Positions 1,281 to 32,725 of a stretch of 64,000 bases of DNA are shown here, in pieces. Below the pieces are notes generated by a model that was not told where the DNA came from, ran no database searches, and worked only from the letters and a program-made list of their open reading frames with translations. The first letter of the stretch is position 1, and every line of letters starts with the position of its first letter. This stretch comes from Patescibacteria group bacterium. GTDB lineage: Bacteria > Patescibacteriota > Patescibacteriia > UBA2196. The stretch is from positions 129,112-193,111 of the forward strand of contig DAIUDD010000002.1 in NCBI GenBank assembly GCA_036845805.1, written 5' to 3'. The translations under genes and the position numbers were made by a program.

Positions 1281-1410
1281 AAATTATGAATTATGGTTTT
1301 CTGTCCTCTCCTTTTCAGGGAGGGGACTTAAGCCCAAAGGGCTAAGGGGGTGGTTAATAAATCGCCGATAAGCGTTGTCATCCCGTGCCACGACACGGGA
1401 TCCAGAAAAA

Positions 1411-1818
1411 TTATTTACTTACATGATAAATTACGCTCCATTGTTTAAACCATCTAAAATCTTTATGAAAATGATAATGCTCAACAATATCTAAAATTAA
1501 ATGAATCATATTACTCAAAAATATTAATAAAATTATCTGATTAAAAAATGATAAAATCGCTAAAACAAAATTAAATTCTGGCGAATGAAAAATATATAAA
1601 TGGGCTTGCATCTTTTTACGTTCATTTTTCCCAGCCACAAGCAATTTTTTAAAATTTGAAGTTTTTTCTTTAAAAATAAGGTATATAACATGATCAACGT
1701 CTATTAAAATTCCAAAAATAATAAATAATAAATAAAATTTTAATGAATTAATAACCCCAAAACGGTAAAATATTACGCCCGTAGCTATATTGACGACTAA
1801 GTGTTTTGAAAGATTCAT
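1411..1818 (-). CDS. Small integral membrane protein (hypothetical; His-rich C-terminal 'HYHFH')
   Basis: 135-aa ORF with 3-4 hydrophobic helices; no family recognised. Confidence 0.35.
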   Translation of the reverse strand: MNLSKHLVVNIATGVIFYRFGVINSLKFYLLFIIFGILIDVDHVIYLIFKEKTSNFKKLLVAGKNERKKMQAHLYIFHSPEFNFVLAILSFFNQIILLIFLSNMIHLILDIVEHYHFHKDFRWFKQWSVIYHVSK

Positions 1819-1971
1819 GTTTTAATTTTTTATTTTCTGGATTCCCGATTTTCATCGGAATGACAATTTTTATTACTTTATTACCTTATTACTTTATTAC
1901 CAAATAATCACGGAATCCTTCGACTTCATTTCGCTTTTGCAAAACTTCGCTCGCTCAGGATGATAACCACC

Positions 1972-3045
1972 TTAGAATTGCTTTAAAAACCTTAAATCAC
2001 CAGAATGCATCAAGCGCACATCATCAATGCCATATTTCATCATCACCAGCCGATCAAGGCCCACATTAATATAAAATCCTTGCCATTTTTTTGGATCAAG
2101 ACCACCAGCTTTTAGGACGTTGGGGTGTGGCGCGCCGCCGGGCATCACTTCCAACCAACCGCGCTGTTTACAAACACTGCAACCCTTTCCACCACAAACC
2201 TGGCATTCCATATCAATTTCAAAGCCGGGTTCCACAAAAGGAAAAAAACCGGCACGCATGCGAATTTTTACCTCATGGCCAAAAGTGCGCGCTAATATAG
2301 TTTTAATTAAAATTTTACCAGCGGCAAAAGAAATATTTTCATCCACAATTAAAGCTTCGTATTGATAAAAACAACGTTCGTGTCCGGCATCGGTGGCTTC
2401 ACTTCGAAAAACACGACCAGGATAAACAAATCTAAGTGGCGGTTGGTGGGTTTGCATATAAAGCACGCTGCCACCTGTTAAATGTGGCCGCAAACACAAC
2501 CTTTCAAATCCTTTTTCTTCACTTTCATTTTGACTTTTTAATTTTGACTTTTGACTTTGTATCCAATACGTATCCATTGATTCGCGCGCCGGATGATCAG
2601 GGGGAAAATTTAAAGAATCAAAAGCATAACCTTCGGAAGTAATTTCCGGCCCGTCATAAATTTCAAAATTTAAAGAACGAAATGTGTCATTTAATTCGTA
2701 GATTATGGAAGTGATCGGATGAAGCGAGCCAATTTTCTGTGATTGGCCGGGGATGGTGGGATCAAAAGTTTTTTGAAAATTCTTATTTTTTTCCTTAGCA
2801 TCACCAGCTAAAATATTTTTGGTTTCTGAAAAAATTTTCTCGGCTTCAGTTTTAATCTCATTAATCAAACGACCCATGGCTGGCTTTTCTGCAATTGCTA
2901 CATTTCTGACCTCTTTAAAAACTGTGGTCAATTGTCCTTGACGGCCAAGATATTTATAATACAATTCCTCTAGTTCTTGGCTATTTTTGACCGCTTTAAT
3001 TTTTTCTAATAATTCTTTTTTTAAGTGGTTTAATTTTGCCTGCAT
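1972..3045 (-). CDS. pheS: Phenylalanine--tRNA ligase alpha subunit
   Basis: Class II aaRS motifs ('FRSEATDAGHERCFYQYEALIVDENISFA', 'GFFPFVEPGFEIDMEC', 'GGLDPKKWQGFYINVGLDRL'). Also carries an in-frame tandem 'ttttgact' repeat encoding a KSKLKSQ insert. Confidence 0.9.
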   Translation of the reverse strand: MQAKLNHLKKELLEKIKAVKNSQELEELYYKYLGRQGQLTTVFKEVRNVAIAEKPAMGRLINEIKTEAEKIFSETKNILAGDAKEKNKNFQKTFDPTIPGQSQKIGSLHPITSIIYELNDTFRSLNFEIYDGPEITSEGYAFDSLNFPPDHPARESMDTYWIQSQKSKLKSQNESEEKGFERLCLRPHLTGGSVLYMQTHQPPLRFVYPGRVFRSEATDAGHERCFYQYEALIVDENISFAAGKILIKTILARTFGHEVKIRMRAGFFPFVEPGFEIDMECQVCGGKGCSVCKQRGWLEVMPGGAPHPNVLKAGGLDPKKWQGFYINVGLDRLVMMKYGIDDVRLMHSGDLRFLKQF

Positions 3046-3078
3046 ATTATTTTTTAAAATTTGTCGCCGGTGAGGCAG

Positions 3079-3573
3079 CTAGGATTTAGTTAAATTAGAA
3101 GATAAATTTTCGGGGATAGATTTTTCAGTTTTATTTTTTTCTGATTCTTCACTGTTTTGATAATGATTTTGAAAATAAAATTCAACAAGAGAAAAAAGAA
3201 TAACTAATAAAAGTAGATTCCACCAGGTAACCAAGCGCTGACTTTGTAACAATAATGTACCAACGATAATTAAAGCAAACCAAATACTTTGGCGGCCGGA
3301 AGCAATCATCTGATCGGCGGGAAAAACACTATGATGAAAAAAATAACGCATTAAAAATCCAAACAAAGAAAATGTCCCAACTAAAGCAAAAAATAAGGAG
3401 AGATAAAACAAAACAAAAACAAAAAAAGTAGCGCTTTCGGGGTTAATATTAAAGACTACCAAAAACCAAGCACCCCAACTCAACAATAAGGAAAAAATTA
3501 TAAAAATAAGGTAGGTTTTTAAAGACATTTTAATTAAACCTTGAAAGTTTTCCCAAGGTTGATTAAACTTCAC
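3079..3573 (-). CDS. Integral membrane protein (hypothetical, 4 TM)
   Basis: 164-aa hydrophobic ORF; no family recognised. Confidence 0.4.
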   Translation of the reverse strand: MKFNQPWENFQGLIKMSLKTYLIFIIFSLLLSWGAWFLVVFNINPESATFFVFVLFYLSLFFALVGTFSLFGFLMRYFFHHSVFPADQMIASGRQSIWFALIIVGTLLLQSQRLVTWWNLLLLVILFSLVEFYFQNHYQNSEESEKNKTEKSIPENLSSNLTKS

Positions 3574-3699
3574 TATTTACTTTAATTTTACCAAAATAAC
3601 AGATCTTTAGCAAACACAGTTAAAAACAGAAAATCCCGGCTTTAAGGCGGGATTTTCTGTTCTCTAAAAAATTGCTTTTGGCTAAAAAACAATAAAAGA

Positions 3700-3876
3700 T
3701 TAAAGATCAGCTGGTCTGATAGTTGATCTTTTGTTATCTTCACATCTTTTGGCGGCTTTGTCAAGCATATGAGCAACTTCTTTGCTCAAAGCTTCAGCCA
3801 AATCGCCAGCCATATGAAGATTTTTGCCTTTGACATAGGCTTTAACTTTGGAACCGACTACAAGCATGTCTTCCAT
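3700..3876 (-). CDS. Bacterial histone-fold DNA-binding protein (Bd0055/HBb-like, DUF1931-like singlet histone)
   Basis: Hand-translated 58-aa ORF, below the ORF-track cutoff: MEDMLVVGSKVKAYVKGKNLHMAGDLAEALSKEVAHMLDKAAKRCEDNKRSTIRPADL. Aligns residue-by-residue with my recollection of Bdellovibrio histone Bd0055 (MAEVLVVTSKVKKLIKEKGQMNTSAETIDVLSKAIEQLCLKAVDSAKADGRKTVMARDI), including the 'VVxSKVK' motif and the C-terminal 'RKT/RST-I-xxxDI' motif of the histone fold. Confidence 0.55.
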   Translation of the reverse strand: MEDMLVVGSKVKAYVKGKNLHMAGDLAEALSKEVAHMLDKAAKRCEDNKRSTIRPADL

Positions 3877-3994
3877 AATATTATTGAGTTTAAATTTGTT
3901 TTAAATTTAAACTAATTAATTTTAATTTAATGTTGCGCAAAACTTAAAGATATTATAGCAAATTGGGGAAAAAAATAACAATTTCTTTTTTAAG

Positions 3995-4068
3995 CGGAGC
4001 GGACGAGACTTGAACTCGCGACCTCTGCCGTGACAGGGCAGCGTTCTAACCAACTGAACTACCGCTCC
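3995..4068 (-). tRNA. tRNA-Asp (GTC)
   Basis: Hand-folded cloverleaf GGAGCGG-TA-GTTC..GAAC-G-CTGCC-CTGTCAC-GGCAG-..-GCGAG-TTCAAGT-CTCGT-CCGCTCC-G. Anticodon GTC; no encoded CCA. Confidence 0.8.
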
Positions 4069-4090
4069 GCGCAAAAAAGAAAAGTAAATT

Positions 4091-4411
4091 TTATTCATTC
4101 CAAAAAATCAAAGCTACAGAAATTATACCTAAAAAAATACCCACTAATTGTATTTTTGTCAAATATTCTTTATACAAAATAATGCCTATCAAGCTAGCAA
4201 AAACAGCGGAAACAACAGAAAAAATTACTGCGCCTCTGGCTAAACCAGAACCATTTTTTAAAGCAAATAACCAAAAAGTATTAGCTATAACATATGCCAA
4301 AATAGCACCAACGGCCCAAACTAAACCTGTTTTTAAAGACCATTCTTTGGCCAAAATATCTGCAATTATCTCAAACAAAATTAATAAACTTAAGAAAAAT
4401 ATCCAGTTCAT
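4091..4411 (-). CDS. Small multidrug resistance (SMR/EmrE-like) 4-TM transporter
   Basis: 106 aa with four TM helices and a conserved Glu in TM1 ('FEIIADILAKEW'), typical of the SMR/DMT superfamily. Confidence 0.65.
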   Translation of the reverse strand: MNWIFFLSLLILFEIIADILAKEWSLKTGLVWAVGAILAYVIANTFWLFALKNGSGLARGAVIFSVVSAVFASLIGIILYKEYLTKIQLVGIFLGIISVALIFWNE

Positions 4412-4575
4412 AAGATCAAAATTATTCTATCACAAATTTGAAATAAAGCAAGAAAAAATATTATCGCCTATTGGCTATCTTGTTAACCGCCCCCTCCGCT
4501 CCACTCTCCACAAGGGAGGTGAAGCGAGAGGCCCCGCCTTGAAAAGGCGGGGAGTTTTAAAATTCCCTTAATTTC

Positions 4576-6039
4576 TTAGTTTCTAATTTCTAATTTCTCC
4601 CCCACTCCAAACAAAATCTCTTCTCCCCACCATGGGCCGATGAGTTGCGCGCCAATTGGCAAACCGGCTTTGGTTTGGCCACAAGGAATTGACATGGCGG
4701 GCAGACCGGCTAAATTAACTGGCACAGTAAAAATATCTTCCAAATACATGGTCAAAGGATCATTAATTTTTTCACCGATTTTAAAAGCGGGCGTGGGAGT
4801 GGTGGGAGTTAATAAAAGATCAACTTGCTTAAATACTTTTTCAAAATCTTCGCGAATTAAAGCACGCACTTGCTGCGCTTTTTTATAATAGGCATCATAG
4901 TAACCAGCAGACAAAGTATAAGTGCCGAGCATTATTCTTCTTTTAACTTCTTCGCCCAAAAATTCAGCCCTTGTTTTTTTATAATGAGCTAACAAATTTT
5001 CTGAATCTACAGACTGGCCATAACGAATGCCATCAAAACGAGCCAAATTAGCGCTGGTTTCGGCTGGCTGAATTATATAATAAACAGCGAGCGCATATTC
5101 GGTATGCGGCAAACTAATATCAATAATTTGGGCGCCTAATTCTTCAGCTTTTTTGATTGCTTCTTTCACCGATTTCTCTACTTCCGGATCGATTCCAGCA
5201 ACAAAATATTCTTTAGGAATGCCGATTTTAAGATTCTTCAAATTTTCTTTTCCCTTAATTTCTTCATTTCTGGTTGCTTCAGCAACCATCCCGCCGTGGC
5301 GGGATGAAAGCGGAGCTTTCAATTTCTTAATTTCCATGCTAGTTGCATCTTTTTCATCTTTGCCTTTAATGACATCAAAAACAATTTTAGCATCAGCCAC
5401 TGTTTTGGTTAGAGGGCCAACTTGATCCAAAGATGAGGCCATGGCAATCAAACCATAACGGGAAACTGCGCCATAAGTTGGTTTTAGACCAACTACGCCG
5501 CAAAAAGTAGCTGGTTCGCGCACTGAACCGCCAGTATCAGTGCCGAGCGCATAAACAGCTAAATCAGCAGCCACGGCGGCGGCGGAACCACCAGAAGACC
5601 CGCCAGGCACGCGCTCTAAGTCATGGGGGTTTTTTACCAAGCCAAAACCAGAATTTTCATTAGAGCCGCCCATGGCAAATTCATCACAATTATTTTTACC
5701 TAAAATCACCGCGTCGGCGTTTTTTATTTTGGCGACGGCCATGGCGTCGTATGGAGCAAAGTAATTAGCTAAAATTTTGGAAGCGGCAGTGGTTTTGATG
5801 CCTTCAGTCATTAAAACATCTTTCACGCTCATTGGGATGCCAGCCAATAAAGAAATTTCAGCACCATTTTTAATTTTTTCATCAACAACAGCGGCTTGAG
5901 CTAAAGCTTCATCTTTAGTCACGGTAATAAAAGCATTAAGTTCCGGGTTTTTGTTTTCAAGACGCGCTAAATATTCGCGGGTTAATTCGACCGCAGAGAA
6001 TTTTTTATTAATTAATTTTTCATGAAGTTCTTGGATCAT
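4576..6039 (-). CDS. gatA: Glutamyl-tRNA(Gln) amidotransferase subunit A
   Basis: Amidase signature 'GGSSGGSAAAVAA' plus 'GTDTGGSVREPA'; 487 aa; immediately downstream of gatC. Confidence 0.9.
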   Translation of the reverse strand: MIQELHEKLINKKFSAVELTREYLARLENKNPELNAFITVTKDEALAQAAVVDEKIKNGAEISLLAGIPMSVKDVLMTEGIKTTAASKILANYFAPYDAMAVAKIKNADAVILGKNNCDEFAMGGSNENSGFGLVKNPHDLERVPGGSSGGSAAAVAADLAVYALGTDTGGSVREPATFCGVVGLKPTYGAVSRYGLIAMASSLDQVGPLTKTVADAKIVFDVIKGKDEKDATSMEIKKLKAPLSSRHGGMVAEATRNEEIKGKENLKNLKIGIPKEYFVAGIDPEVEKSVKEAIKKAEELGAQIIDISLPHTEYALAVYYIIQPAETSANLARFDGIRYGQSVDSENLLAHYKKTRAEFLGEEVKRRIMLGTYTLSAGYYDAYYKKAQQVRALIREDFEKVFKQVDLLLTPTTPTPAFKIGEKINDPLTMYLEDIFTVPVNLAGLPAMSIPCGQTKAGLPIGAQLIGPWWGEEILFGVGEKLEIRN

Positions 6040-6149
6040 AATTTTATGTCATGCCGTCCCGCGTTCGCGGGATCGGCATCTCTTTATTTCAAAATAATCT
6101 TAGGTTGAGAGATCCTGAAATAAATTCAGGATGACAAAATAAATTAAAA

Positions 6150-6488
6150 CTAAAACACTGACCTGACTTTCACTTGCCCCTTCTCTACTTCTGGCGCCAT
6201 ATCAATTAATTCCCCAAATTTCTCCTGCCTGCCATCGCCTGACGGCGAAGCCAATGGCGGGCAGGCTACTTCTTTATTTCTTAATTTCTCCTCATCTTCC
6301 CGCCAAACATTGGTCAAATCAATCGTGCCGCCATCAGCGGTAGGCACGTTTTGTGTATCAACCTCTTTTAATTTATTCATATAATCTAAAATGCGATCAA
6401 GCTGGGCTTGATATTTTTCTACTTCATCATTAGTTAAACTGATTTTAGCTAAATCAGCTATATGTTCGACATCACTTTTGGTAAGCAT
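6150..6488 (-). CDS. gatC: Asp/Glu-tRNA amidotransferase subunit C
   Basis: 112 aa; N-terminus 'LTKSDVEHIADLAKISLTNDEVEKYQAQLDRILDYMNKL' matches GatC; sits upstream of gatA. Confidence 0.8.
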   Translation of the reverse strand: MLTKSDVEHIADLAKISLTNDEVEKYQAQLDRILDYMNKLKEVDTQNVPTADGGTIDLTNVWREDEEKLRNKEVACPPLASPSGDGRQEKFGELIDMAPEVEKGQVKVRSVF

Positions 6489-6531
6489 AAAAATTAAAAT
6501 TATGTCTCTATTTTAGCATAAATTTAATTTT

Positions 6532-6559
6532 TGACAAATTATAATTTTTAGTTTATAAT
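6532..6559 (+). promoter_or_regulatory. Consensus sigma70-like promoter (TTGACA-N16-TATAAT) driving a short non-coding transcript
   Basis: Exact TTGACA at 6532-6537 and exact TATAAT at 6554-6559. Confidence 0.5.
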
Positions 6560-6566
6560 CTATTTG

Positions 6567-6706
6567 GTTCGTTCGCGAGATTACATTAAGCCCTGATAAG
6601 ATAAAAAGTGCTGGAAAACGTGTGCCAAATCAAAGCCACTCCTCTTTGATTTTGGCTATCCCCGCGTTTTCTTACGGTTGCTTATCAGGGCTTTTTTATT
6701 TTTTAC
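6567..6706 (+). ncRNA. Candidate small structured RNA (unclassified), about 130 nt, ending in an intrinsic terminator
   Basis: Closing 12-bp helix AGCCCTGATAAG (6590-6601) / CTTATCAGGGCT (6681-6692) followed by TTTTTTATTTTTT. Nested helices inside (CCAAATCAAAG/CTTTGATTTTGG; GGAAAACG/CGTTTTC). No ORF. Confidence 0.3.
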
Positions 6707-6798
6707 ACTTGACTTTTAAATTTAAAATATTAAAATCAGATTAAACATCAAAATTTAAAATTAAAAAAATTCTGCTAAGCCAAAGCGAGGAGGTAAAA

Positions 6799-7128
6799 AT
6801 GCAGAAGAAAAAATACAAAAATTATCCAACATGCACATGGTTTGTGCTGATTGTACATTGGACAAAAAAACAGATACAAATTTTTTATTCAAAGCGAGAA
6901 CAGGCTATAGATGAAAAAATTAGCAATTTACAAGAATCCATTCCTGATTTACCAGAGAATGAAAGAGCACGACCAATTGATGGCACAAATATGCCGAGCG
7001 CTCACAAATATAAAATGCCTTTTGCTGGATCAAAACGTGGCCCAACTCAGATAAACATTAAAAAAAGTTTCCACACAATATTGCCACATTTAAAAGGAGT
7101 AAAAATCAAATTCACCAAATTAGAATAG
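6799..7128 (+). CDS. Hypothetical Lys-rich protein (109 aa)
   Basis: Strong SD 'GAGGAGGTAAAA' before the ATG; TTGACT-N16-TAAAAT promoter at 6709-6736; hairpin terminator at 7133-7170. No family recognised. Confidence 0.4.
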   Translation: MQKKKYKNYPTCTWFVLIVHWTKKQIQIFYSKREQAIDEKISNLQESIPDLPENERARPIDGTNMPSAHKYKMPFAGSKRGPTQINIKKSFHTILPHLKGVKIKFTKLE

Positions 7129-7132
7129 AATT

Positions 7133-7170
7133 AAAAATCCTCCGTTTGAAGCGGAGGATTTTATTTTACT
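7133..7170. terminator. Bidirectional rho-independent terminator (AATCCTCCG-TTTGA-AGCGGAGGATT + T-run)
   Basis: 9-bp GC-rich stem flanked by T/A runs; lies between convergent genes. Confidence 0.6.
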
Positions 7171-7197
7171 CATCATTTATATTTACTGCCGAATTAT

Positions 7198-8835
7198 CTA
7201 ATTATTGTCGCTTGTCTCTTGTTGCTTGTTGCTAATTATTAAATATTTCTGCGCTTCTTTTTTGTTTTTAATTTTACCCAATAATTGCGCTTCGCGAAGC
7301 TTTTCTTTAAGTTCACCGACTCTTTTTCCTGACGAGATTTTAAGCAGGTGCATAATCTCAGTGCCATCAATCAGAGGTTTGGGCAGAGCATTTAATCTTT
7401 GCTTTTCTTTTAACAACGCTCTCATACTTTTAATTCTTTTCAAAAGCGCGCCAATTAAATCAAATTCTAATTTGCCAGTTTGGGGAATAGTGGCCAAAGA
7501 ATCAAGATAAGCTAATTTGATTAAATTTAAACCTGAATAATTTTCGGAAAAAAAATATTTTTCAATAGTGGTTGGCCGAAATTCCGAAGGATGGCCATGA
7601 ATTAACATCATGTGTTTTCGAACCAACCAAGAAACATTGTCAGGACTAATGCCATATTTCTCCGGGGCAGAAAAAGTTAATCGTTCACAAATATTCTTGG
7701 CCAAATCAGCGCCGACGTTGTCATGTTCATAAAATCTAATGCGTTCAACCTTGTCTTTGGCTGGCGTTTCAATGGTATAGGGTTTGCCGAGGTCGTGAAA
7801 AATAATTGCAAAGACTAATTCGAGTCTTTGTTTAATAAAATCTTTTCCTGGTTGCTTGTCGCTTATTACTAATAACTTTTCCACTTTCTTCTCAAATATT
7901 CTAAATTGCGGACTATTTATTTTATTAAGTGCTAATTTTGTATGCTGCCAAACATCGCCTTCAGAATGAAAATTTTTTGGCTGGGGGCATTTTTTCATTT
8001 TTAAAATTTCCGGCATTAAAATTTTAAAAATTCCCAGCTGATCGCACAAATCAAGGGCGGAGACGGGCTGATAATAAAAAGCACGCAATAATTCTTTGGC
8101 AATGGTTTCCCGTGGTGCAATCCAGTCCCCTTTTTTATTTTTATCATTAAGGCGCGGGGTTAATTTTTTAATCGCGATAAAAGTTTTTTTCTCAATTTTA
8201 AAATTCAACTGGCACGAAAGGCGCACGGCACGCAAAATTCTGGAATAATCTTCCCCAAATCTTTCGGCTGGCTTACCAACCGCTCGGATAGTTTTATTTT
8301 TCAGGTCATCAAGACCACAAAAAGGGTCAATTATTTTATCTGTCATCCTCGAGAAATCGAGGATCCCATCTTTATTAGCAATCAACACCGCCACAGCATT
8401 AATGGTAAAATCTCTTCTTAACAAATCTTCTTTCAGCGCTAATTTTTTATCAAATTTAACTTTAAAATCTTTATAACCGCCGGTGTTAAAAGAAAATTCT
8501 GTGCGCGGCAGGGCAATATCAAGCGGTTCAAAATTATTATCATTAATAAATTTCTTGGGCTTAAATTTCAAAACGCCAAAATTCCGACCAAGTTTTTCCA
8601 CCCAGCCAAGACGGCCTAAAAATTCTTCTAACTTTTTCATGGGGACATGACGAACCACAAAATCAAAATCCTTATTGTCTTTGACACCAAGCAAAGCATC
8701 GCGGACCGCGCCACCAACTAAATAAACTTCGGCCTGGGGAAATTCTTTAACTAACTTCTTTGACCAATCTAAAACCGCGCCCTTTTCCAGGGTTTGCAGA
8801 AATTTATTTAAATTGGACTCATGAGTTTTATTCAT
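7198..8835 (-). CDS. cca: CCA-adding tRNA nucleotidyltransferase / poly(A) polymerase family with HD domain
   Basis: Pol-beta NTase motif 'LVGGAVRDALLGVKDNKDFDFVV', 'RDFTINA', and C-terminal HD region ('IFHDLGKP'). Start set at MNKTHES (8835); the longer ORF-track start reads through a palindromic repeat. Confidence 0.8.
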   Translation of the reverse strand: MNKTHESNLNKFLQTLEKGAVLDWSKKLVKEFPQAEVYLVGGAVRDALLGVKDNKDFDFVVRHVPMKKLEEFLGRLGWVEKLGRNFGVLKFKPKKFINDNNFEPLDIALPRTEFSFNTGGYKDFKVKFDKKLALKEDLLRRDFTINAVAVLIANKDGILDFSRMTDKIIDPFCGLDDLKNKTIRAVGKPAERFGEDYSRILRAVRLSCQLNFKIEKKTFIAIKKLTPRLNDKNKKGDWIAPRETIAKELLRAFYYQPVSALDLCDQLGIFKILMPEILKMKKCPQPKNFHSEGDVWQHTKLALNKINSPQFRIFEKKVEKLLVISDKQPGKDFIKQRLELVFAIIFHDLGKPYTIETPAKDKVERIRFYEHDNVGADLAKNICERLTFSAPEKYGISPDNVSWLVRKHMMLIHGHPSEFRPTTIEKYFFSENYSGLNLIKLAYLDSLATIPQTGKLEFDLIGALLKRIKSMRALLKEKQRLNALPKPLIDGTEIMHLLKISSGKRVGELKEKLREAQLLGKIKNKKEAQKYLIISNKQQETSDNN

Positions 8836-9073
8836 GCTCTGTTTTATTTTGTCGTCCCGAACTCCCGCCCGCCTCGCAAGCGAGAGCGTTGCGGGCAGGT
8901 GTTTCAGGATCTCTATAATAAAAAAATTATTCTTTGTAAAAAGATGCTGAAATAAATTCAGCATGACAAAAAACATTACTATTATAATAAATTCATTTTA
9001 CCTCTAAAAATCAATTTTTTCAAGCAAACAAAAAATTACCATCTCTGATAATTTTTTGTTTTATAATTTAAAA

Positions 9074-9586
9074 TTACTTAATTGCTAATAATTCCACTTC
9101 AAAAATCAAAGTGGCTTTGGCTGGAATAGCACCGGGGATACCCTCTTCGCCATAAGCTAAATTATAGGGAATGGTTAATTTTCTTTTTTCACCAACTTTC
9201 ATGCCAGAAACCCCCTGATCCCAACCAGCAATCACCCGGCCAGCACCTAGCGGAAATTCAAATGGCGCGCCACGATCAAGACTAGAATCAAATTTAGTGC
9301 CATCAGTCAACCAGCCGGTATAATGAACCACGGCAATCTCGCCAGCCATAATTTGTCTATCACCGGTGCCCACATTTAATGTTTCAATTTGTAATTCCAT
9401 ATTATTATTTATTTTTTCTGGTTCTTTGGGTGTAGTCTCTGCCAACTGGTTCTCTTCTTTGGTTAAAACATTTTCTGTAGTCGGATTAGAAATATCGGCA
9501 ACATCGGGCTTGATAAAAACCAAATAAACAGCCAGAATGACAATTATTAATATGACTAATAAGGCAATGCTTTCGCGCGTATTCAT
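9074..9586 (-). CDS. FKBP-type peptidyl-prolyl cis-trans isomerase, membrane-anchored
   Basis: N-terminal TM then FKBP domain ('[55 protein letters not shown]...[12 protein letters not shown]'). Confidence 0.8.
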
Positions 9587-9628
9587 AAATATAAAAAACA
9601 AATTTTATATTAAAAAATATTTTTCAAT

Positions 9629-9672
9629 TGCCTGGGGGCAGAACCCCGATGGACATCGGGGCGCAAGGATAC
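9629..9672 (-). pseudogene. Degenerate 3' fragment of tRNA-Phe (duplicate of anticodon-stem-to-3'-end region, T-stem replaced by a CCCCGATG..CATCGGGG hairpin)
   Basis: 27-nt identical repeat 'atatttttcaattgcctgggggcagaa' at 9611-9637 and 9697-9723; reverse complement reads ...ATCCTTGCG[CCCCGATGTCCATCGGGG]TTCTGCCCCCAGGCA. Confidence 0.5.
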
Positions 9673-9710
9673 ATTCCACAACGGGTTTTGATATTAAAAT
9701 ATTTTTCAAT

Positions 9711-9782
9711 TGCCTGGGGGCAGAATCGGACTGCCGACGCAAGGATTTTCAGTCCTTCGCTCTACCACTGAGCTACCCAGGC
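9711..9782 (-). tRNA. tRNA-Phe (GAA)
   Basis: GCCTGGG-TA-GCTC..GAGC-AAGGA-CTGAAAA-TCCTT-..-GGCAG-TCCGATT-CTGCC-CCCAGGC-A. Anticodon GAA. Confidence 0.8.
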
Positions 9783-9789
9783 ATTAATT

Positions 9790-9830
9790 TGGGCATGGAT
9801 GGATTTGAACCATCGACATTCACCTTATAC
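9790..9830 (-). pseudogene. tRNA 3'-half fragment (Ile-like; anticodon loop to acceptor 3' strand CATGCCCA)
   Basis: Reverse complement TATAAGGTGAATGTCGATGGTTCAAATCCATCCATGCCCA parallels the 3' half of the adjacent intact tRNA-Ile. Confidence 0.45.
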
Positions 9831-9876
9831 TAAATATAATTACTGCGTTCGCAAAAAATATAAATGTCAAGACAAT

Positions 9877-9952
9877 TGGTGGGCACGGGTGGATTTGAAC
9901 CACCGACATCCACCTTATAAGGGTGGCGCTCTAACCGCTGAGCTACGTGCCC
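9877..9952 (-). tRNA. tRNA-Ile (TAT), CCA encoded
   Basis: GGGCACG-TA-GCTC..GAGC-G-CCACC-CTTATAA-GGTGG-..-GGTGG-TTCAAAT-CCACC-CGTGCCC-A-CCA. Anticodon read as UAU. Confidence 0.6.
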
Positions 9953-9990
9953 AGTGGTTTTAACATTTACATTTTATTGCTCTCTGGTAA

Positions 9991-10074
9991 TTATAAGGGT
10001 GGCGCTCTAACCCGCCCGCCTCGCAAGCGAGAGCGTTGCGGGCAGGCCGCTCGACTACATGCCCTTTATTATAA
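9991..10074 (-). pseudogene. tRNA 5'-half fragment (acceptor GGGCATG + D-arm + anticodon stem/loop) with a 35-nt GC-rich palindromic element inserted in the D-loop
   Basis: Reverse complement GGGCATGTAGTCGAGCGG[CCTGCCCGCAACGCTCTCGCTTGCGAGGCGGGCGG]GTTAGAGCGCCACCCTTATAA. The 5' acceptor GGGCATG is exactly complementary to the 3' fragment at 9790-9830 (CATGCCC). Confidence 0.45.
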
Positions 10075-10167
10075 ATATAATAACAAATTTGATCAAGCAT
10101 TTCAACTCTTGCCAAAATTTTATAAATGTATTATTATTAAAACATTAATTTTAAAATTTATAACTCT

Positions 10168-10431
10168 ATGCCTCAAATGAAAGCAGCTGAAAAAGCTTTA
10201 AGACAAACTAAAAAAAGAACGGTCAAAAACGACCAGATAAGAAAAAATTTGGATTATTTGCTGCGAAGTTTTAAAAAAGCAATTAATATTAAAGATGGCC
10301 AAAAGAGTCAAGAAATTGCCAAACAACTCGCCAAAGCCCTGGATAAAGCCGCACAAAAAAGAGTGATTAAAAAAAATAATGCGGCGAGAAAAAAATCTCG
10401 GCTAATGAAGAAAGTAAAGGTAATAAAATAA
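10168..10431 (+). CDS. rpsT: 30S ribosomal protein S20
   Basis: 87-aa basic protein 'MPQMKAAEKALRQTKKRTVKNDQIRKNL...KALDKAAQKRVIKKNNAARKKSRL' matching the S20 pattern. Terminator hairpin CCCCGC..GCGGGG+T-run at 10443-10476. Confidence 0.8.
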   Translation: MPQMKAAEKALRQTKKRTVKNDQIRKNLDYLLRSFKKAINIKDGQKSQEIAKQLAKALDKAAQKRVIKKNNAARKKSRLMKKVKVIK

Positions 10432-10519
10432 CAAATTTCCTACCCCGCCCTTCACGAAGAGCGGGGTTTTGGTTTTTTAAAAAAAATGTTAAGATAAAAT
10501 AAACTAATCAAATAAACAT

Positions 10520-11020
10520 ATGCTCGAAGAACAAAATAACCAACACGTTCGTCCATCTTGGGATGAATATTTTATGAAATTAGCCCAAATGGTTGGTGAA
10601 CGCGGAACTTGTGACCGTGGTCGAGCTGGTTCAGTAGCAGTTAAAGATAAAAGAATTATGGCCACTGGCTATGTCGGTTCACCACCAGGGATGCCACACT
10701 GCGATGAAGCTGGCCACATTATTCATGAAGTGATCAATGATGATGGTACGGTTTCTAAACATTGCGTGCGTACTATTCATTCAGAACAAAACATCATCTG
10801 TCAGGCTGCTAAGTATGGTATTTCCTTAGATGGCTGCACTATTTATACTAAAATGGAACCCTGTTATGTTTGTGCGCGCATGTTGGTAGCAGTGGGCATA
10901 AAAAGAGTGGTGTGCCAAAAAAGATATCATGGCGCCAAATTAACACGTGAACTTTTTGAAAAAGCTGGTATAAAACTTGATGTTTTAGAAGATGAGTTAG
11001 AAACTTATAAAGACATGTAA
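10520..11020 (+). CDS. dCMP deaminase (cytidine/deoxycytidylate deaminase zinc-binding family)
   Basis: Zinc motifs 'HSEQNIICQAAKYG' (HxE) and 'PCYVCARML' (PCxxC). Confidence 0.85.
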   Translation: MLEEQNNQHVRPSWDEYFMKLAQMVGERGTCDRGRAGSVAVKDKRIMATGYVGSPPGMPHCDEAGHIIHEVINDDGTVSKHCVRTIHSEQNIICQAAKYGISLDGCTIYTKMEPCYVCARMLVAVGIKRVVCQKRYHGAKLTRELFEKAGIKLDVLEDELETYKDM

Positions 11021-11022
11021 AT

Positions 11023-11604
11023 ATGAATAACAAAATCGTCTGCATAACCGGACTTTGTGGTTCGGGAAAAAGTGAGGTAGCAGAATTTTTTGTAAGGGCG
11101 GGTTATGCTTATATTAGGTTTGGTCAAATTGTATTGGATGAAATAAAAAAAAGAGGCTTAGAACCAAATGAAGCAAACGAAAGACCAATTAGAGAAAGTT
11201 TTAGAAAACAATATGGAATGGCGGCTTTTGCAATTTTGAACCAACCCAAAATTGATAATTTTTTAGAAGAAGGTAAAAATGTTTTAGCTGACGGTCTTTA
11301 TAGTTGGTCTGAATACAAAGAATTAAAAAATAAATATAACAATAATCTGATAGTTATTGCAGTATATGCCTCTCCTAAAACACGTTATGCTAGATTAGAG
11401 GATAGAAGAAATCGCTATGACAATGACCCTAATTTAAAATATCGTTCATTTTCCAAAAAAGAAGCCAAGGATCGTGATTATGCCGAAATAGAAAATATTG
11501 AAAAGGCAGGACCAATTGCGATGGCCGATTTTACTATTATTAATGAAGGAACTTTGGTAGATTTACATGCACAAATAGAAAAAATTTTAGAAAAAATATG
11601 TTAA
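11023..11604 (+). CDS. P-loop nucleotide kinase (dephospho-CoA kinase / dNMP kinase-like)
   Basis: Walker A 'GLCGSGKS' at the N-terminus; about 190 aa; overlaps stop/start with flanking nucleotide-metabolism genes. Confidence 0.55.
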   Translation: MNNKIVCITGLCGSGKSEVAEFFVRAGYAYIRFGQIVLDEIKKRGLEPNEANERPIRESFRKQYGMAAFAILNQPKIDNFLEEGKNVLADGLYSWSEYKELKNKYNNNLIVIAVYASPKTRYARLEDRRNRYDNDPNLKYRSFSKKEAKDRDYAEIENIEKAGPIAMADFTIINEGTLVDLHAQIEKILEKIC

Positions 11605-12630: not shown

Positions 12631-12654
12631 TATGTTTAAAATTATCAGATGCCA

Positions 12655-12682
12655 AAAAACACTTTTTAAAAAGTGTTTTTTG
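12655..12682. terminator. Perfect 28-bp palindrome (AAAAAACACTTTTT|AAAAAGTGTTTTTT); bidirectional terminator between convergent genes
   Basis: Exact inverted repeat with flanking A/T runs on both strands. Confidence 0.65.
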
Positions 12683-12705
12683 ATTATCAATTTCTATTTC
12701 TAAAA

Positions 12706-13317: not shown

Positions 13318-13449
13318 AAATTTTTTATTTTTATTTAATTAATATTTAATATTATATCATTTTTTAAGACACTTGCCAAAATCTATAGGCGTGATAAGGT
13401 AATAAAGGAAAAGAAATGTATCTAAAAAAAATAAAAGTGAGGAGGAAAA

Positions 13450-18916: not shown

Positions 18917-20131
18917 TTATTTTTCTAAAACTTTTATTATATTGTCAACTAAATCATCAATATTTTCTGGATTAACAAAATTTGCTTTAAAATAATTCTG
19001 TAAAGATTCTTTAATGCCGCCAACATCCGAGGTAATAATTGGTAAATTAAATTCTTGGGCCTCTAAAAAAACCACGCCAAAACTTTCAGTATCTGTTGAA
19101 GGCGAGGTTCCGGAACCTCGCCTTCGAGGAGTCATAATAAACGCGTCGGCCAACTCATAATAATTAGGCAAATCTTGGTGTGGCACAGAACCAGCAAAAA
19201 TTACCCTATCGACACTTTTTATTTGAAAAGTGCCAGCCACATCATCCCCTCCTTTCGAAGGAGGGGCCTCTCGGCGATTAGCCGGAGGGGGAGGTAATAA
19301 TTCGTTGGCAATTTTAATTAATCTGTTTTTATCTGGGCCATCGCCAATAATTAGATAAACCAAATCTGGAATTTTCTGCCAAACTTTTGGCAAAGATTCA
19401 AGCACCCGATCAATACCTTTAGATTCTACCAAGCGCGCCACAGTTAATAAAACTTTTTTGTTAGCTAAATTATATTTTTCTTTTAATTCTGCTACTTTCT
19501 GTGGATCAACCATTTCTTTTTTTAATGTATTAACTGGATAAACAATTCTTATTTTTTCCGGCTGAACTTTAAAATCATTGATTAAAATATTTTTAGTAAA
19601 TTCAGTGTTGGCCTCAACAAATTCGGCGTCCTTCAAGATTTTCTTAGCTAACAAAAATTTGCGTTTATTCTTTTTGGCACGAAGCAAATCATTACCGTGG
19701 CAGGTGACAAAGTAAATTATGTCATTCCCGCCCCGCAAAATGCGGGGGGAATCCCCTTGAACTACGAGATCCTCACTTTTGTGAGGATGACAATGAGAAA
19801 ATAAATTCATTATTTTACAGATTAACCAAACCGCTGTGCCCACTGGCAAAATTTGCCCTGCCCATAAACGTTTAATTTTTTCTTTTTTTGCTATTTTATA
19901 AATGTGCCAAACTAAAGGCAGCCAGTGGGGCCAGATAAAACGCCAAAAAAAATGCTTATAAATTAATTTAAAATCATAAATCTTAAATCGTAAATCATAA
20001 ATCTCTGATTTATTCATCAAAACAACCACTGTCTTACCGGTATCAACCACCTGTCTGACTCTTTGCCTATAATAATTGGCAATGCCACCGATTAGGGGCG
20101 GAAAATCCATGGTAATTAAAAGCGTTTTCAT
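18917..20131 (-). CDS. Glycosyltransferase family 4 (GT-B) carrying multiple in-frame palindromic-repeat insertions
   Basis: C-terminal GT4 core 'VIFAGSVPHQDLPNYYELADAFIMTP...ESFGVVFLEAQEFNLPIITSDVGGIKE'. Segments 'PPPPANRREAPPSKGGD', 'RRRGSGTSPSTDT', 'CHPHKSEDL' and 'GDSPRILRGG' are encoded by hairpin repeats (see findings). Confidence 0.75.
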   Translation of the reverse strand: MKTLLITMDFPPLIGGIANYYRQRVRQVVDTGKTVVVLMNKSEIYDLRFKIYDFKLIYKHFFWRFIWPHWLPLVWHIYKIAKKEKIKRLWAGQILPVGTAVWLICKIMNLFSHCHPHKSEDLVVQGDSPRILRGGNDIIYFVTCHGNDLLRAKKNKRKFLLAKKILKDAEFVEANTEFTKNILINDFKVQPEKIRIVYPVNTLKKEMVDPQKVAELKEKYNLANKKVLLTVARLVESKGIDRVLESLPKVWQKIPDLVYLIIGDGPDKNRLIKIANELLPPPPANRREAPPSKGGDDVAGTFQIKSVDRVIFAGSVPHQDLPNYYELADAFIMTPRRRGSGTSPSTDTESFGVVFLEAQEFNLPIITSDVGGIKESLQNYFKANFVNPENIDDLVDNIIKVLEK

Positions 20132-21672: not shown

Positions 21673-21871
21673 ACAAATTTTATCCCCTCCTTACTAAGGA
21701 GGGGCCTCTCGCCACAAAGTGGCGGAGGGGGGGTTAAGAAAAACAAATTACTTTTAGTTTAGCAAAAAAATGTCAATCTGACAAAATATAAAAATCTCAT
21801 ATTTTCTACACTTGCCTCGAAAATGTAAAACTTTGTTTTACGTTTCACTCGCTCACTTGAAAATAAAAAGC

Positions 21872-24377: not shown

Positions 24378-24453
24378 TGGTGGACCGATGGGGACTCGAA
24401 CCCCAGACCCTCGCGTTGCAAACGCGATGCTCTACCAACTGAGCTATCGGCCC
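24378..24453 (-). tRNA. tRNA-Ala (TGC), CCA encoded
   Basis: GGGCCGA-TA-GCTC..GAGC-A-TCGCG-TTTGCAA-CGCGA-..-TGGGG-TTCGAGT-CCCCA-TCGGTCC-A-CCA, with the G3:U70 Ala identity pair present. Confidence 0.85.
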
Positions 24454-24590
24454 GAAAATTAAATTGTTACTGTTGTCATCCTGAACTTGTTTCAGGATCT
24501 CAATTAACTAGTTATTATTGATGCAAAGAGATGCTGAAATAAATTCAGCATAACATAATAAAAAAATTTTATATTTTAAAGATGATTATT

Positions 24591-29927: not shown

Positions 29928-30417
29928 TTTGGAATATAGAAAAAAGGAGTTTGATAATAAAGCTATTTATCTTTTAAAATAAAGCTAAAAATCAAATAAC
30001 AAAAATTTCCTTAAAATAATTTAAAAAAGGAGGCTGATGTATTAATTAATGAAAAAATTAGTAGTTCCATTTTAAATTAAAATATTGAAATTTTTTACTA
30101 AAATTAGCCAATAATTCCTTTATTTTGACAAAATTTTCTGTATTCCAAAATATGATAGTTAATAAATTTTCATGGTTATTATAACACCAAAAAAATAATT
30201 TGGCAAGACGGCCAAATTACTTAATTTCCAAACCAACAAAGGCCCATTTAGCTAATTCCCAAAAAAACAAGAATAGAATAATAAAAAAAGCAAAGCGTGA
30301 GGCCATGTTTCTTAGGCCGGGAAAAATAAGCAAAAATAAACCAGCAACAACCATGGTTAAAAACAAAGAAATTAATTTAGTGTCTTCGGCTTTATCCATA
30401 TTTTTTATTTTATCATC

Positions 30418-32604
30418 TTATTTAATTATCGGCCAACGCTCAACCATTAAAAGGTCACTTTTTTTTACTGGCAAAGATTGATAAATGGTTTCGGTAATAA
30501 AAGGTATAAAAGGATGTAAAAGCTTTAAACTGGTAATTAAAACATAAAATAAAATTTCTTGCGCTGCTTTTTTACTTTTTTCGTCGGCACCGTTTAGGCG
30601 ATCCTTAACGGCTTCAATATAAACATCACAGAAATCATGCCAAAAAAATTGATAAGCATCTTGAGCCGCTTCATGAAACATATAATTATCTAGATTTCGC
30701 GTGACGCTTTTAGTAGCTTCATTTAAAGCTGCTAAAATTGTTTGATCAGCGGGGTCAGAAGCGACAGGAGTGGCAAGGGTGGAAGAAAAATCGTTGCCCA
30801 GGTTGTTTAAAACAAATTTACTGGCGTTCCAAATTTTATTGGCAAATCTTTTAAAACCGATAATTTTTTCTTCATAAAATTTGGAATCATTACCGGGTGT
30901 GACGCCAAAAATTAAAGACAAGCGCAGGGCGTCAGTGCCGTGTTTGTCACACACTTCTCTGGGATCAATGCCAATGCCAAGAGATTTAGAAAATTTTTGG
31001 CCACTCTTATTGCGGAGCATGCCATGAATATAGACTTCTTTAAAAGGAATTTCCTCCAAAGCATAAGTGGACATTAAAATCATCCGCGCCATCCAGAAAA
31101 ATAATATTTCATAACCCATCTGCATCCAACTGGTGGGGTGAAATTTTTTCAAATCCTCTGTTTTCTCCGGCCAGCCAAGCGTGGAAAATGTCCACAGCCC
31201 TGATGAAAACCAAGTGTCCAAAGTATCAGGATCTTGCTCCCAATCCCCACCTTTTGGTGGTTTGTCACCAACATAAATTTCTTGTTTATGATAGTAAACC
31301 GGAATCCGGTGTCCAAACCAAATCTGGCGGGAAATGCACCAGTCGCGCAGATTATCAATCCAGTTGAAATAACTTTTTTCAAACCGCTCGGGCGTGATTT
31401 TTATTTTTTGTTTTGGATCATTATTCAAGCCGGTGGTAAAAGCTTCTTTCATTAAATCTTTTAAACTTTTATTTTTGCCGGGAATTTTTTTATTAACACT
31501 CACAAACCACTGGAGCATGGGAATGGCTTCCACCACGTCGCCAAAACGGTCAGAAGTGCCGACATTTTGCGGAATGTCTTCTTCTTTGATAAATAAATTA
31601 TTTTCTTTAAGCCAGTCAATAAATTTTTCTCTGGCTGCCAAAACTTTTAAGCCCGCATAATTTTTGCCAGCGGCTTCAGTCATCCGGCCGAAATTATCAA
31701 TCACTGGAATTAATTCCAAGTTATGTTTTTCTTTTAATTCAAAATCAATTTGGCTATGGGCTGGCGTCACACCCAAAGCGCCGGTGCCATATTCAGGATC
31801 AACTATTTCATCGCCAATAATTTTGATGGCTAGGGGTTTGGCGGCGCCAACATCAACTTGAAAAGTTTGGCCAATATATTTTTTATAACGTTCGTCGTTT
31901 GGATTAACCGCAACCGCGGTGTCACCAAGCTTTGTTTCTGGCCTGGTGGTGGCAATCGTGATGGGAAAATCAGCACTATATTTAAAAGTATAAAGCTTGC
32001 CGGATTGTTCCTGATAAACCAATTCATCATCACTGCAAGTGGACTGGCCCTTGACTGACCAATTCACCACCCGGTAGCCGCGATAAATTAAGCCATCATT
32101 ATACATTTTAATGAACATTTCATTAACCGCCTTTTCTCGCTTATCATCAAAAGTATAAGCCAAGCGGCTCCAGTCGCAAGAGGTGCCCATTTTTTTAATT
32201 TGTTCCAAAATTGTTTTTTGTGATTTTTCCGCATAATCTTTAATCAGCGTCAATAGTTTTTCGCGGCCGAGTTCAGCCCGCGGATTTTTATATTGGCCAG
32301 ATTTAACCAATTCTTTTTCCACTTTGGCTTGGGTGGCGACCGCCGCATGATCAGTGCCGGGAATAATGACGGCCCGCTTGCCTTGCATTCTTTGATATCT
32401 GATTTCAATATCCATGAGCGCGTTTTCCAAAGCATGGCCCAAATGCAAAACACCGGTCACATTCACCGGCGGCATGGCCAGGGAAAAAACCGGCGCGTCT
32501 TTCTCGATTGGCAAATTATCAGGATTAAAATAACCAGATTTTTCCCAAAGCTGGTAAATTTTTTCTTCGTGCTCTTTTGAATTATATGGACCTGGAGGCA
32601 GCAT
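30418..32604 (-). CDS. valS: Valine--tRNA ligase (short form, 728 aa, no C-terminal coiled coil)
   Basis: Class I motifs 'PPVNVTGVLHLGHAL' (HIGH) and 'KFSKS' (KMSKS); overall ValRS-like N-terminus 'QLWEKSGYFNP'. Confidence 0.8.
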   Translation of the reverse strand: MLPPGPYNSKEHEEKIYQLWEKSGYFNPDNLPIEKDAPVFSLAMPPVNVTGVLHLGHALENALMDIEIRYQRMQGKRAVIIPGTDHAAVATQAKVEKELVKSGQYKNPRAELGREKLLTLIKDYAEKSQKTILEQIKKMGTSCDWSRLAYTFDDKREKAVNEMFIKMYNDGLIYRGYRVVNWSVKGQSTCSDDELVYQEQSGKLYTFKYSADFPITIATTRPETKLGDTAVAVNPNDERYKKYIGQTFQVDVGAAKPLAIKIIGDEIVDPEYGTGALGVTPAHSQIDFELKEKHNLELIPVIDNFGRMTEAAGKNYAGLKVLAAREKFIDWLKENNLFIKEEDIPQNVGTSDRFGDVVEAIPMLQWFVSVNKKIPGKNKSLKDLMKEAFTTGLNNDPKQKIKITPERFEKSYFNWIDNLRDWCISRQIWFGHRIPVYYHKQEIYVGDKPPKGGDWEQDPDTLDTWFSSGLWTFSTLGWPEKTEDLKKFHPTSWMQMGYEILFFWMARMILMSTYALEEIPFKEVYIHGMLRNKSGQKFSKSLGIGIDPREVCDKHGTDALRLSLIFGVTPGNDSKFYEEKIIGFKRFANKIWNASKFVLNNLGNDFSSTLATPVASDPADQTILAALNEATKSVTRNLDNYMFHEAAQDAYQFFWHDFCDVYIEAVKDRLNGADEKSKKAAQEILFYVLITSLKLLHPFIPFITETIYQSLPVKKSDLLMVERWPIIK

Positions 32605-32725
32605 AAATTTTTGTCATCCTTATATAAATAAGGATCCAATCATTAATCATATTTTACTTTTTTTTCTTGATTTAGTCAATTAAAAATCCAGCTGGCGCTG
32701 GAAGATTAAAAAATGTTTTTTAAAT

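Follow-up and report, generated by a model that had tools for sequence, protein, structure and literature searches.

We found that a 64,000-nucleotide stretch of DNA from a Patescibacteria group bacterium (contig DAIUDD010000002.1; the whole stretch is called the window below) carries 13 short tagged hairpins, which are very probably repetitive extragenic palindromes (REPs) of the CGTC type. In related loci of other genomes, a gene for a small GIY-YIG protein takes the place of the spacer inside dimers of such repeats. Considering all observations, the explanation that fits best, and that we hold to be likely, is that these hairpins are selfish CGTC/TGTC-tagged REPs with the GIY-YIG nuclease as their putative mobilizer.

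The census covered the 64-kb window, which comes from an uncultured host, is identical in sequence to metagenome contigs and has a G+C content of 36.5%. The octamer TGTCAT[CG]C occurs eight times, five on the plus strand and three on the minus strand, and in 8 of 8 cases a hairpin and then G[GC]ATC follow. A strict pattern, in which the TGTC tag is followed by a perfect 8-bp stem with AT as its first two bases and a 4-6-nt loop, was found seven times, against a mean of 0.005 and a maximum of 1 in 200 dinucleotide-preserving shuffles, so that the family lies far above the shuffled expectation. A covariance model trained on ten units and then run on the window regained its training units at 30-44 bits and also picked up the unit at 1838-1865(-) plus the long-stem units at 6047 and 19720; the degenerate units at 1912-1965(-) and 8850-8913(+) were added from reading of the flanking sequence. 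The total came to 13 units at eight loci. All copies in the initial annotation are real, and their positions were exact or off by a few bases; its count of eight was too low, the newly counted units being 1838-1865(-), 1912-1965(-), 8850-8913(+) and 19720-19755(+). All 13 units lie in window positions 1-33000 and none in 33001-64000. In this REP-bearing first 33 kb, genes are mostly on the minus strand and the cumulative GC skew is falling; the confinement may reflect a strand or replication bias, or chance.

The anatomy of the units is uniform in outline (table 1). The tag is TGTC in 11 of the 13 units, with the variants TGTT (24555) and TATC (1965). Stems generally open with AT(C/G)C or ATTC. 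Eight units have perfect 8-bp stems that start with AT; in five (6047, 8850, 19720, 1838, and 1912) the stem is longer, bulged or interrupted, and four of these five also start with AT, the one at 8850 starting with GT. Loops are of 4 nt (8341, 19792, 32612, and 1838) or 5 nt (6136, 8968, 24474, 24555, and 19720), with 6 nt at 1376 only. The fixed 3' flank GSATCTC that had been proposed was not found; all units end instead in an unpaired 3-nt tail of varying sequence (CTC in six, CCA in three, CCC in two, CTT in one, and TCC in one). Single units measure 27-36 nt and dimers 73-128 nt. Folded as single-stranded DNA, the units gave the expected hairpins, with free energies (dG) from -5.8 to -13.4 kcal/mol and z-scores from -2.3 to -5.8, and the tag stayed unpaired in the minimum free energy folds of nearly all single units, the exception being 19717-19764, where the last tag base is paired.

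The suggestion that the internal stems covary, and that the structure is what selection preserves, was borne out. In ten aligned units every cell (100%) of the seven stem pairs is a standard pair, and four of the seven pairs change on both sides. The covariation score was reached by 0 of 500 shuffles, and slid registers came nowhere near it. The stem variation is compensatory, we suggest, because the hairpin and its tag are recognized rather than the stem sequence. Moreover, 8 of the 13 units are paired into four tag-outward, or head-to-head (HH), dimers (6047-6136, 8850-8968, 19720-19792, and 24474-24555); no tail-to-tail (TT) dimer occurs and only one pair (1838/1912) is head-to-tail (HT). 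The spacers are 26, 27 and 26 nt long in the three intergenic dimers and 10 nt long in the dimer inside the GT4 gene. In the folds of dimers 6043-6140 and 19717-19796, the TGTC and GACA at the ends can pair with each other, closing the dimer. No unit matched Rfam at the gathering threshold, and a scan of 5900-9100 at E<=1 gave only sub-threshold matches at chance level. A terminator function, which had been among the roles suggested, was dropped: in a terminator scan of window positions 1-20000, which hold ten units, only the unit at 8944-8964 was flagged with a T-run, the remaining ones having CTC or CCA tails with no T-run.

Table 1.—Tagged hairpin units of the window, with the REP-like hairpin upstream of the small GIY-YIG open reading frame (ORF)
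Feature	Coordinates	Strand	Tag, stem, loop, stem, tail	Score or fold	Position and remarks
REP singleton	1376..1404	+	TGTC ATCCCGTG CCACGA CACGGGAT CCA	30.3 bits	6 nt past stop of ORF135 (1411-1818, -), upstream of mraY
REP singleton, one bulge	1838..1865	-	TGTC ATTCCGAT GAAA ATCGGGAAT CCA	23.8 bits, E ~1e-4	19 nt upstream of ORF135 start
Degenerate REP	1912..1965	-	TATC tag, ATCCT...AGGAT around long GC-rich interior, TCC tail	by reading	directly past pheS stop
HH dimer 1, left	6047..6082	+	TGTC ATGCCGTCCCGCG TT CGCGGGA(T)CGGCAT CTC; 12-bp stem, one bulge	dG -13.2, z -4.9, 20.1 bits	7 nt from gatA start
HH dimer 1, spacer	6083-6108				26 nt
HH dimer 1, right	6109..6136	-	TGTC ATCCTGAA TTTAT TTCAGGAT CTC	43.9 bits	13 nt past gatC stop
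Intragenic REP in cca	8341..8367	+	TGTC ATCCTCGA GAAA TCGAGGAT CCC		27 nt; gene on -
HH dimer 2, left, degenerate	8850..8913	+	TGTC GTCCCGAAC (GC-rich hairpin insert) GTTTCAGGAT CTC	by reading	ends ~15 nt upstream of probable cca start (8835); weakest of set
HH dimer 2, spacer	8914-8940				27 nt
HH dimer 2, right	8941..8968	-	TGTC ATGCTGAA TTTAT TTCAGCAT CTT	42.2 bits	
GT4 HH heterodimer, left	19720..19755	+	TGTC ATTCCCGCCCCGC AAAAT GCGGGGGGAAT CCC	dG -10.8, 14.8 bits	ATTCCC...GGGAAT flavor, dRS3/RPE-like
GT4 HH heterodimer, right	19766..19792	-	TGTC ATCCTCAC AAAA GTGAGGAT CTC	38.2 bits	
HH dimer 3, left	24474..24501	+	TGTC ATCCTGAA CTTGT TTCAGGAT CTC	42.6 bits	20 nt from 5' end of tRNA-Ala (24378-24453, -)
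HH dimer 3, spacer	24502-24527				26 nt
HH dimer 3, right	24528..24555	-	TGTT (tag variant) ATGCTGAA TTTAT TTCAGCAT CTC	z -5.8, 37.0 bits	
REP singleton	32612..32638	+	TGTC ATCCTTAT ATAA ATAAGGAT CCA	40.2 bits	7 nt upstream of leuS start (32604, -)
REP-like hairpin	40382-40406	+	(TGCC) ATGCACC TTTAT GGTGCAT GGC		24 nt upstream of ORF 40430-40690

Two superfamilies of REPs, tagged GTAG and CGTC, were distinguished by Di Nocera, De Gregorio and Rocco (2013, BMC Genomics 14:522; PMC3733652). According to that survey, CGTC REPs have a CGTC tag, often TGTC, a stem of 8-9 bp whose first pairs are A-T and T-A, a loop of 4-5 nt and an unpaired 3-nt tail, mostly CCA. HH dimers with spacers of 20-100 bp predominate there, TT dimers are rare and HT ones negligible; the repeats lie mostly between unidirectional or convergent genes, and some are in frame, with dimers coding for 20-30 residues. 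The members include RPE-4 and RPE-6 of Rickettsia and dRS3 of Neisseria, spread over five phyla and mostly found in alpha-proteobacteria, and the survey reports no transposase or associated gene (PMC3733652). The window units fit each of these features except the tail sequence. They share with that described superfamily the unpaired tag, the AT stem, the loop, the 3-nt tail, the HH dimers, the co-directional setting and the in-frame copies, and the unit at 19720-19755 shares the ATTCCCGC...GCGGGAAT flavor too. They differ from what is described there in their Patescibacteria host, a member of the candidate phyla radiation (CPR), in their mostly CTC tails, one 6-nt loop and several GC-rich interiors or bulges, and in the small GIY-YIG gene inside HH dimers of related loci. 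Membership was judged on this described anatomy, not on the CGTC-1..4 family consensus sequences, and on that footing the window repeats form an ordinary population, unlisted until now, of an established REP superfamily, which they extend to Patescibacteria. A literature search with the literal repeat sequence returned nothing relevant.

Other known systems are similar in part. In REPIN/RAYT systems (REP doublets and their associated transposase), the palindrome is likewise short, bears four unpaired nucleotides at its 5' end and is replicated as inverted doublets, and a small gene between inverted repeats is accompanied by many copies with no ORF. However, the tag there is GTAG, not TGTC or CGTC, and the gene encodes a Y1 HUH transposase, whereas a GIY-YIG nuclease is flanked here; in addition, those systems are described as lineage-specific and vertically inherited, whereas the sequence here is conserved across phyla and also occurs in viral contigs. 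No cognate TnpA-REP (IS200-like) gene was seen, with no search dedicated to Y1_Tnp having been made of the window or the source genome, and no TnpA or TnpB gene was seen near any copy. The subterminal hairpins of IS200/IS605 insertion sequences share the principle of a hairpin with an adjacent short unpaired motif as the signal for recognition and cleavage, but have distinct left and right ends, whereas the ends here are mirror images. Rickettsia palindromic elements of the RPE-1 type are also selfish palindromes that are tolerated in frame in essential genes, where they add a peptide loop. Their sequences are unrelated to the window units, and they are longer, about 100-150 bp against 27-36 nt, or 73-128 nt for dimers.

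The genomic positions of the units were then considered. Every intergenic unit sits between co-directional genes, often 6-13 nt past a stop or 7-19 nt before a start, and the units occur in both orientations relative to transcription. The two copies previously placed inside genes, in cca and GT4, are truly in frame, and basal orthologs have neither; the named relatives of both proteins belong to Parcubacteria, Kuenenbacteria and the "Patescibacteria group." In cca, a loop joins the motifs RRDFTINA and IIDPF, and the unit at 8341-8367 makes up nine codons of it (GILDFSRMT). The structure of a CCA-adding enzyme (7otr) has a 9-residue gap at this site in the alignment, many orthologs have only about 6 residues there, and basal ones do not have the insert. 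In GT4, the heterodimer at 19720-19792 (73 nt) is part of about 26 inserted codons (MNLFSHCHPHKSEDLVVQGDSPRILRGGND), where the insert-free basal orthologs have VSKIL-KLPYFITCHGNDLL. Palindrome-derived peptides of other sequence are found in further orthologs of cca and GT4, some at these sites and some elsewhere, e.g., CHPHESEDP...DSRLRGND and VIPAKAGIQ...WIPDQVGDD. In CPR orthologs, palindrome-like inserts cluster at the same few loop positions (cca P0002, P0003, P0007, P0009, P0016, and P0017; GT4 P0122-P0129), and further examples are AGVETRHRNL...MRASLQ, LPAFAQKR...APAGKL and PACQSAGASRRLAGR. In-frame palindromic insertions seem to be common in Patescibacteria proteins.

The start of cca is affected as well. 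Both its longest ORF (592 aa) and the database gene call (588 aa) begin inside the REP dimer (window 8836-8976), whereas the orthologs all start at the Met encoded at 8835. Judged from this comparison, the annotated N-terminus is probably spurious, and the dimer at 8850-8968 is most likely intergenic, upstream of the true start, because all cca orthologs start at 8835.

Three syntenic contigs (L123, L124, and L125), whose cca proteins are 68-72% identical, served as relatives for following gain and loss. The cca of L123 carries a unit at the same site and in the same orientation, with a GAAA loop and a CCC tail (TGTC ATCCCGAT GAAA ATCGGGGT CCC); four stem pairs differ from those of the window unit, each on both sides. 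The unit at the gatA start (6047-6082) has counterparts with different interiors in all three relatives, and its partner at 6109-6136 is present in the window only. The three units around ORF135 are shared by L124, where the counterpart of 1376-1404 has a different stem, and are missing from L125, whose spacers there are 3 nt (at the site of 1838-1865) and 24 nt. The unit at 24474-24501 recurs unchanged at another locus of L125, and the degenerate unit at 1912-1965 resembles a TATC-ATCCC...GGGAT-CCC unit before gatA in L124 and L125. From these comparisons, the pattern reads as gain, loss and structure-preserving change, as would be expected of mobile palindromes filtered by selection.

The distribution of the repeat was found to be broad. 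The exact pattern GTCATSCTGAA-N4-6-TTCAGSATC was searched in one genome per species and in viral contigs, the counts being lower bounds. It occurs in at least 120 genome stretches, against about 13 expected by chance in the whole collection by our own arithmetic. The matches listed include Sphingomonas, Novosphingobium, Pedobacter, Treponema, Nitrospirota, Elusimicrobiota, Gastranaerophilales and a Rickettsia endosymbiont, in which the 25-mer adjoins ATTCCCGC...GCGGGAAT units, and, within the CPR, Gracili-, Sacchari-, Nomura-, Falkow- and Peribacteria. Most of the matches listed have an inverted partner 10-60 nt away. In the 120 genome loci listed, 298 of 351 units are tagged CGTC or TGTC, and the dimers comprise 70 HH, 17 TT and 19 HT. 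CTC tails also dominate in other genomes. Viral contigs contain the pattern in at least 120 stretches. Several IMG/VR viral contigs have multiple copies on one strand (seven, all plus, in L246; five, all minus, in L239; also L279 and L284). The REP dimers also occur at 2672-2760 of L032, a 3.8-kb contig assigned by binning to a DPANN archaeon (Nanoarchaeota metagenome-assembled genome, JAHIPG010000372.1), which represents either a real cross-domain presence or a binning error. The initial proposal of a REP-like or miniature mobile element agrees with the anatomy, the covariation, the gain and loss, the in-frame insertion and the spread across phyla and viruses.

A candidate partner gene came from the neighborhoods of the repeats. 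When the ORFs of the 120 REP-anchored loci were clustered all-against-all, the sole specific recurrent neighbor was a GIY-YIG protein of about 95 aa, found in three loci; the other recurrent clusters were generic only (response regulators and ABC transporters). The association was examined from the opposite direction in 80 metagenome loci that had been fetched by the GIY-YIG protein alone (3-sequence query) and were scanned for tagged hairpins. Within 200 nt of the GIY-YIG gene there were 148 such hairpins (4.94/kb), against 59 in the farther flanks (0.24/kb), and 69 of the 80 loci had at least one nearby. The nearest REP was tag-outward upstream in 42 of 74 loci, downstream in 41 of 74 and on both sides in 29 of 68, with median gaps of about 30 nt; the corresponding figures for 93 control ORFs (>=100 aa, same loci) were 2, 3 and 0 (Fisher p 1e-13 to 1e-17). 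The GIY-YIG gene takes the place of the spacer in the HH dimer. Perfect units of the form TGTC-REP / ORF / REP-GACA, of the same flavor as in the window, occur in Levybacteria and Roizmanbacteria, and the named homologs of the protein are largely from the CPR (Kerfeld-, Levy- and Roizmanbacteria). In L163, a dimer with no ORF follows a GIY-YIG unit, and the left ends of the two are identical, including 8 nt of the leader. In some GIY-YIG units (L160 467-772 and L198 2426-2794) the ORF runs into the downstream REP, which supplies its C-terminal residues (..DAEINSA) and, with its ATGACA end, the TGA stop.

The REP-embedded protein is a bare GIY-YIG domain (PF01541) and lacks a DNA-binding extension such as I-TevI has. 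Its nearest solved relatives are the small UPF0213/COG2827 proteins EF2693 (PDB 1ywl) and BH0048 (PDB 1zg2); the REP-embedded ORFs encode single-domain proteins of about 90-100 aa, and their matches to the solved proteins are weak (E ~1e-3), as are matches to TIGR01453. We found no link to GIY-YIG proteins in the literature on REPs, RAYTs and REPINs, and nothing on repeats in that on COG2827, YhbQ and UPF0213; most subscription journals lay outside the coverage of both searches, so an earlier description is possible. With no report found, the association between the GIY-YIG gene and REP dimers appears to be new.

The window has one small GIY-YIG ORF (40430-40690, +), which is diverged (E 5.8e-11 against a hidden Markov model (HMM) of the REP-embedded genes). 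A REP-like hairpin precedes it (table 1) and no REP was found downstream; this arrangement is possibly related to the TGTC units, not a canonical member. The protein has a single genomic context, with no sign that this copy is mobile. The ORF is bracketed by a 36-bp direct repeat (40201-40236 / 40691-40726) that holds a 5' tRNA half (GCCCTCATAGTTCAATGGA). The repeat copies run into tRNA-like fragments (40216-40406 and 40706-40770) with inserts and a TCT anticodon stem-loop, and the intact tRNA-Arg(TCT) follows closely at 40777-40849. The arrangement resembles a tRNA gene that the GIY-YIG gene has disrupted or duplicated by inserting there. ORF135 (1411-1818, -) also has tag-outward REPs on both sides, in a geometry like that of the GIY-YIG units. 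It was considered as REP cargo and rejected, being a syntenic resident in the relatives, including L125, which has no REPs there; no Pfam family matches it at E<=10, and from its sequence we take it for a small, hydrophobic protein of membrane-like character.

Based on these observations, we propose the following mechanism. The REPs would be non-coding, non-autonomous selfish palindromic DNA spreading within and between genomes, two tag-outward units and their spacer forming a composite unit like a REPIN or a miniature inverted-repeat transposable element. The recognition signal would consist of the unpaired tag and the hairpin, the latter being extruded as a cruciform or in single-stranded DNA. 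The GIY-YIG nuclease may recognize this signal and nick or break the DNA there, and host repair or replication may then make a copy of the dimer at a new place; the nuclease would act much as a RAYT does, with a different catalytic domain. The ORF-less dimers of the window could be non-autonomous derivatives of a nuclease-bearing unit, and copies would persist where they are harmless, namely in the intervals that separate co-directional genes and, in frame as with the RPEs of Rickettsia, in protein surface loops (cca and GT4). That the nuclease mobilizes the REPs is a tentative proposal, held with somewhat less than even confidence. More tentative still is the suggestion that CGTC/TGTC REPs are the non-autonomous partners of UPF0213-like nucleases of about 95 aa and make up an undescribed mobile class resembling REPIN/RAYT.

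Several observations weigh against this proposal. Longer or bulged stems are found in 5 of the 13 units, and the window tails are mostly CTC, whereas the published ones are mostly CCA. No consistent target-site duplication or excision footprint was seen when the window was compared with L124/L125 and the unit flanks were read, because the relatives are too diverged. An HMM search of about 1.9 Mb of REP-anchored loci, genomic and viral, detected only four members of this GIY-YIG family, and none in the 1.04 Mb of REP-bearing viral loci; phages carry the repeats without the gene. The window itself has no canonical REP-flanked GIY-YIG gene. Furthermore, GIY-YIG enzymes are nucleases that are not known to carry out strand transfer. 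Finally, a GIY-YIG gene homing into existing HH dimers would give the same REP-ORF-REP architecture.

This last possibility is the main rival, and the present data do not separate it from mobilization by the nuclease. It holds that the REPs are moved otherwise, by an unrecognized HUH/RAYT-like enzyme or by hairpin replication slippage, and that the GIY-YIG genes are homing parasites in the spacers of dimers. GIY-YIG domains are those of classical homing endonucleases, with which the weak TIGR01453 matches agree, the REPs far outnumber the gene, and the dimer in L163 may be an "empty" one beside a filled one with the same left end; IS elements, e.g., of the IS110 family, are also known to target REPs. 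We nevertheless regard homing as rather unlikely. No other mobilizing candidate recurs among the 120 REP-anchored loci listed, and the 2013 survey likewise gives no transposase for CGTC REPs (PMC3733652). Moreover, the start and stop of the gene are integrated with the REPs, and the stop supplied by the REP in L160 suggests long co-evolution over opportunistic insertion.

We judged it improbable that the hairpins are instead non-mobile RNA elements selected by the host, such as 3' untranslated region stabilizers, processing sites, attenuators or translational regulators. The covarying stems would suit such a function, as would co-transcription of the intergenic units, which lie between co-directional genes and in several cases just past a stop or before a start (6-13 and 7-19 nt); the gatA and ORF135 positions keep units across relatives despite altered stems, and REPs have been proposed as RNA elements in the 2013 survey (PMC3733652). 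On the other hand, the units occur in both orientations relative to transcription and in frame within coding sequence, of the ten units in the first 20 kb a single one is followed by a U-tract, and Rfam has no match. In addition, identical 25-mers occur in unrelated phyla and viral contigs, and presence differs between close relatives. An RNA function is compatible with mobility and may be a secondary, exapted role of some copies. The remaining reading, a chance or compositional artifact or clustered restriction-modification recognition sites (GGATG/GGATC/GCATC in the flanks), has a negligible probability and was rejected: the stem bases ATCC/GGAT and ATGC/GCAT do, we presume, coincide with type IIS recognition sequences, but the shuffled expectation was exceeded as stated above, stems in other genomes (ACCC/GGGT, ATTC/GAAT or ATTGCGGG) hold no such sites, and conservation applies to the tag and the arrangement in dimers rather than to the putative sites.

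Other palindromes were noticed in and around the same genes. A G+C-rich hairpin family unrelated to the REPs (CCCCTCCTT-N3/4-AAGGAGGGG, which often has CTTAAGCC-N4-GGCTTAAG(GGGGTGG) as its partner) occurs at 1296-1350, 4532-4552, 19246-19266 (inside GT4), 21684-21704, 42257-42279 and 43112-43130, and, outside the window, in L124/L125 at about 9850-9990, upstream of cca. Its copy in GT4 is in frame (...PPSKGG...) and belongs to a stretch of about 28 inserted residues that is missing from basal orthologs. The GT4 coding sequence also contains a perfect 12-bp hairpin at 19098-19125 (GAAGGCGAGGTT ccgg AACCTCGCCTTC, encoding RRRGSGTSPSTDTE); at this position several orthologs are either free of insertions or have different ones, and the hairpin may represent a third type of palindromic insert. 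ARAGORN predicted a tRNA-Ile with anticodon TAT at window 9877-9952; such a tRNA is probably uncommon in bacteria.

These results bear on how CPR genomes are read. Palindromic insertions are tolerated in frame by CPR proteins (cca and GT4, with many of their orthologs), as they are by those of Rickettsia, and REP insertions matter both for gene calling, as with the database start of cca inside a REP dimer, and for protein insertions taken to be "CPR-specific." The 2013 survey left the question of what moves CGTC REPs, RPE-4/6 and dRS3, and the GIY-YIG gene in dimers is a testable lead. If the nuclease does cut REP hairpins at the tag and stimulate their copying, a nuclease-driven class would join the known bacterial transposable elements, and the near-identical 25-mers in Sphingomonas, Pedobacter, Treponema and the CPR would be explained. 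Such a system would span many phyla, the CPR and phage contigs, and would be able to enter essential genes in frame.

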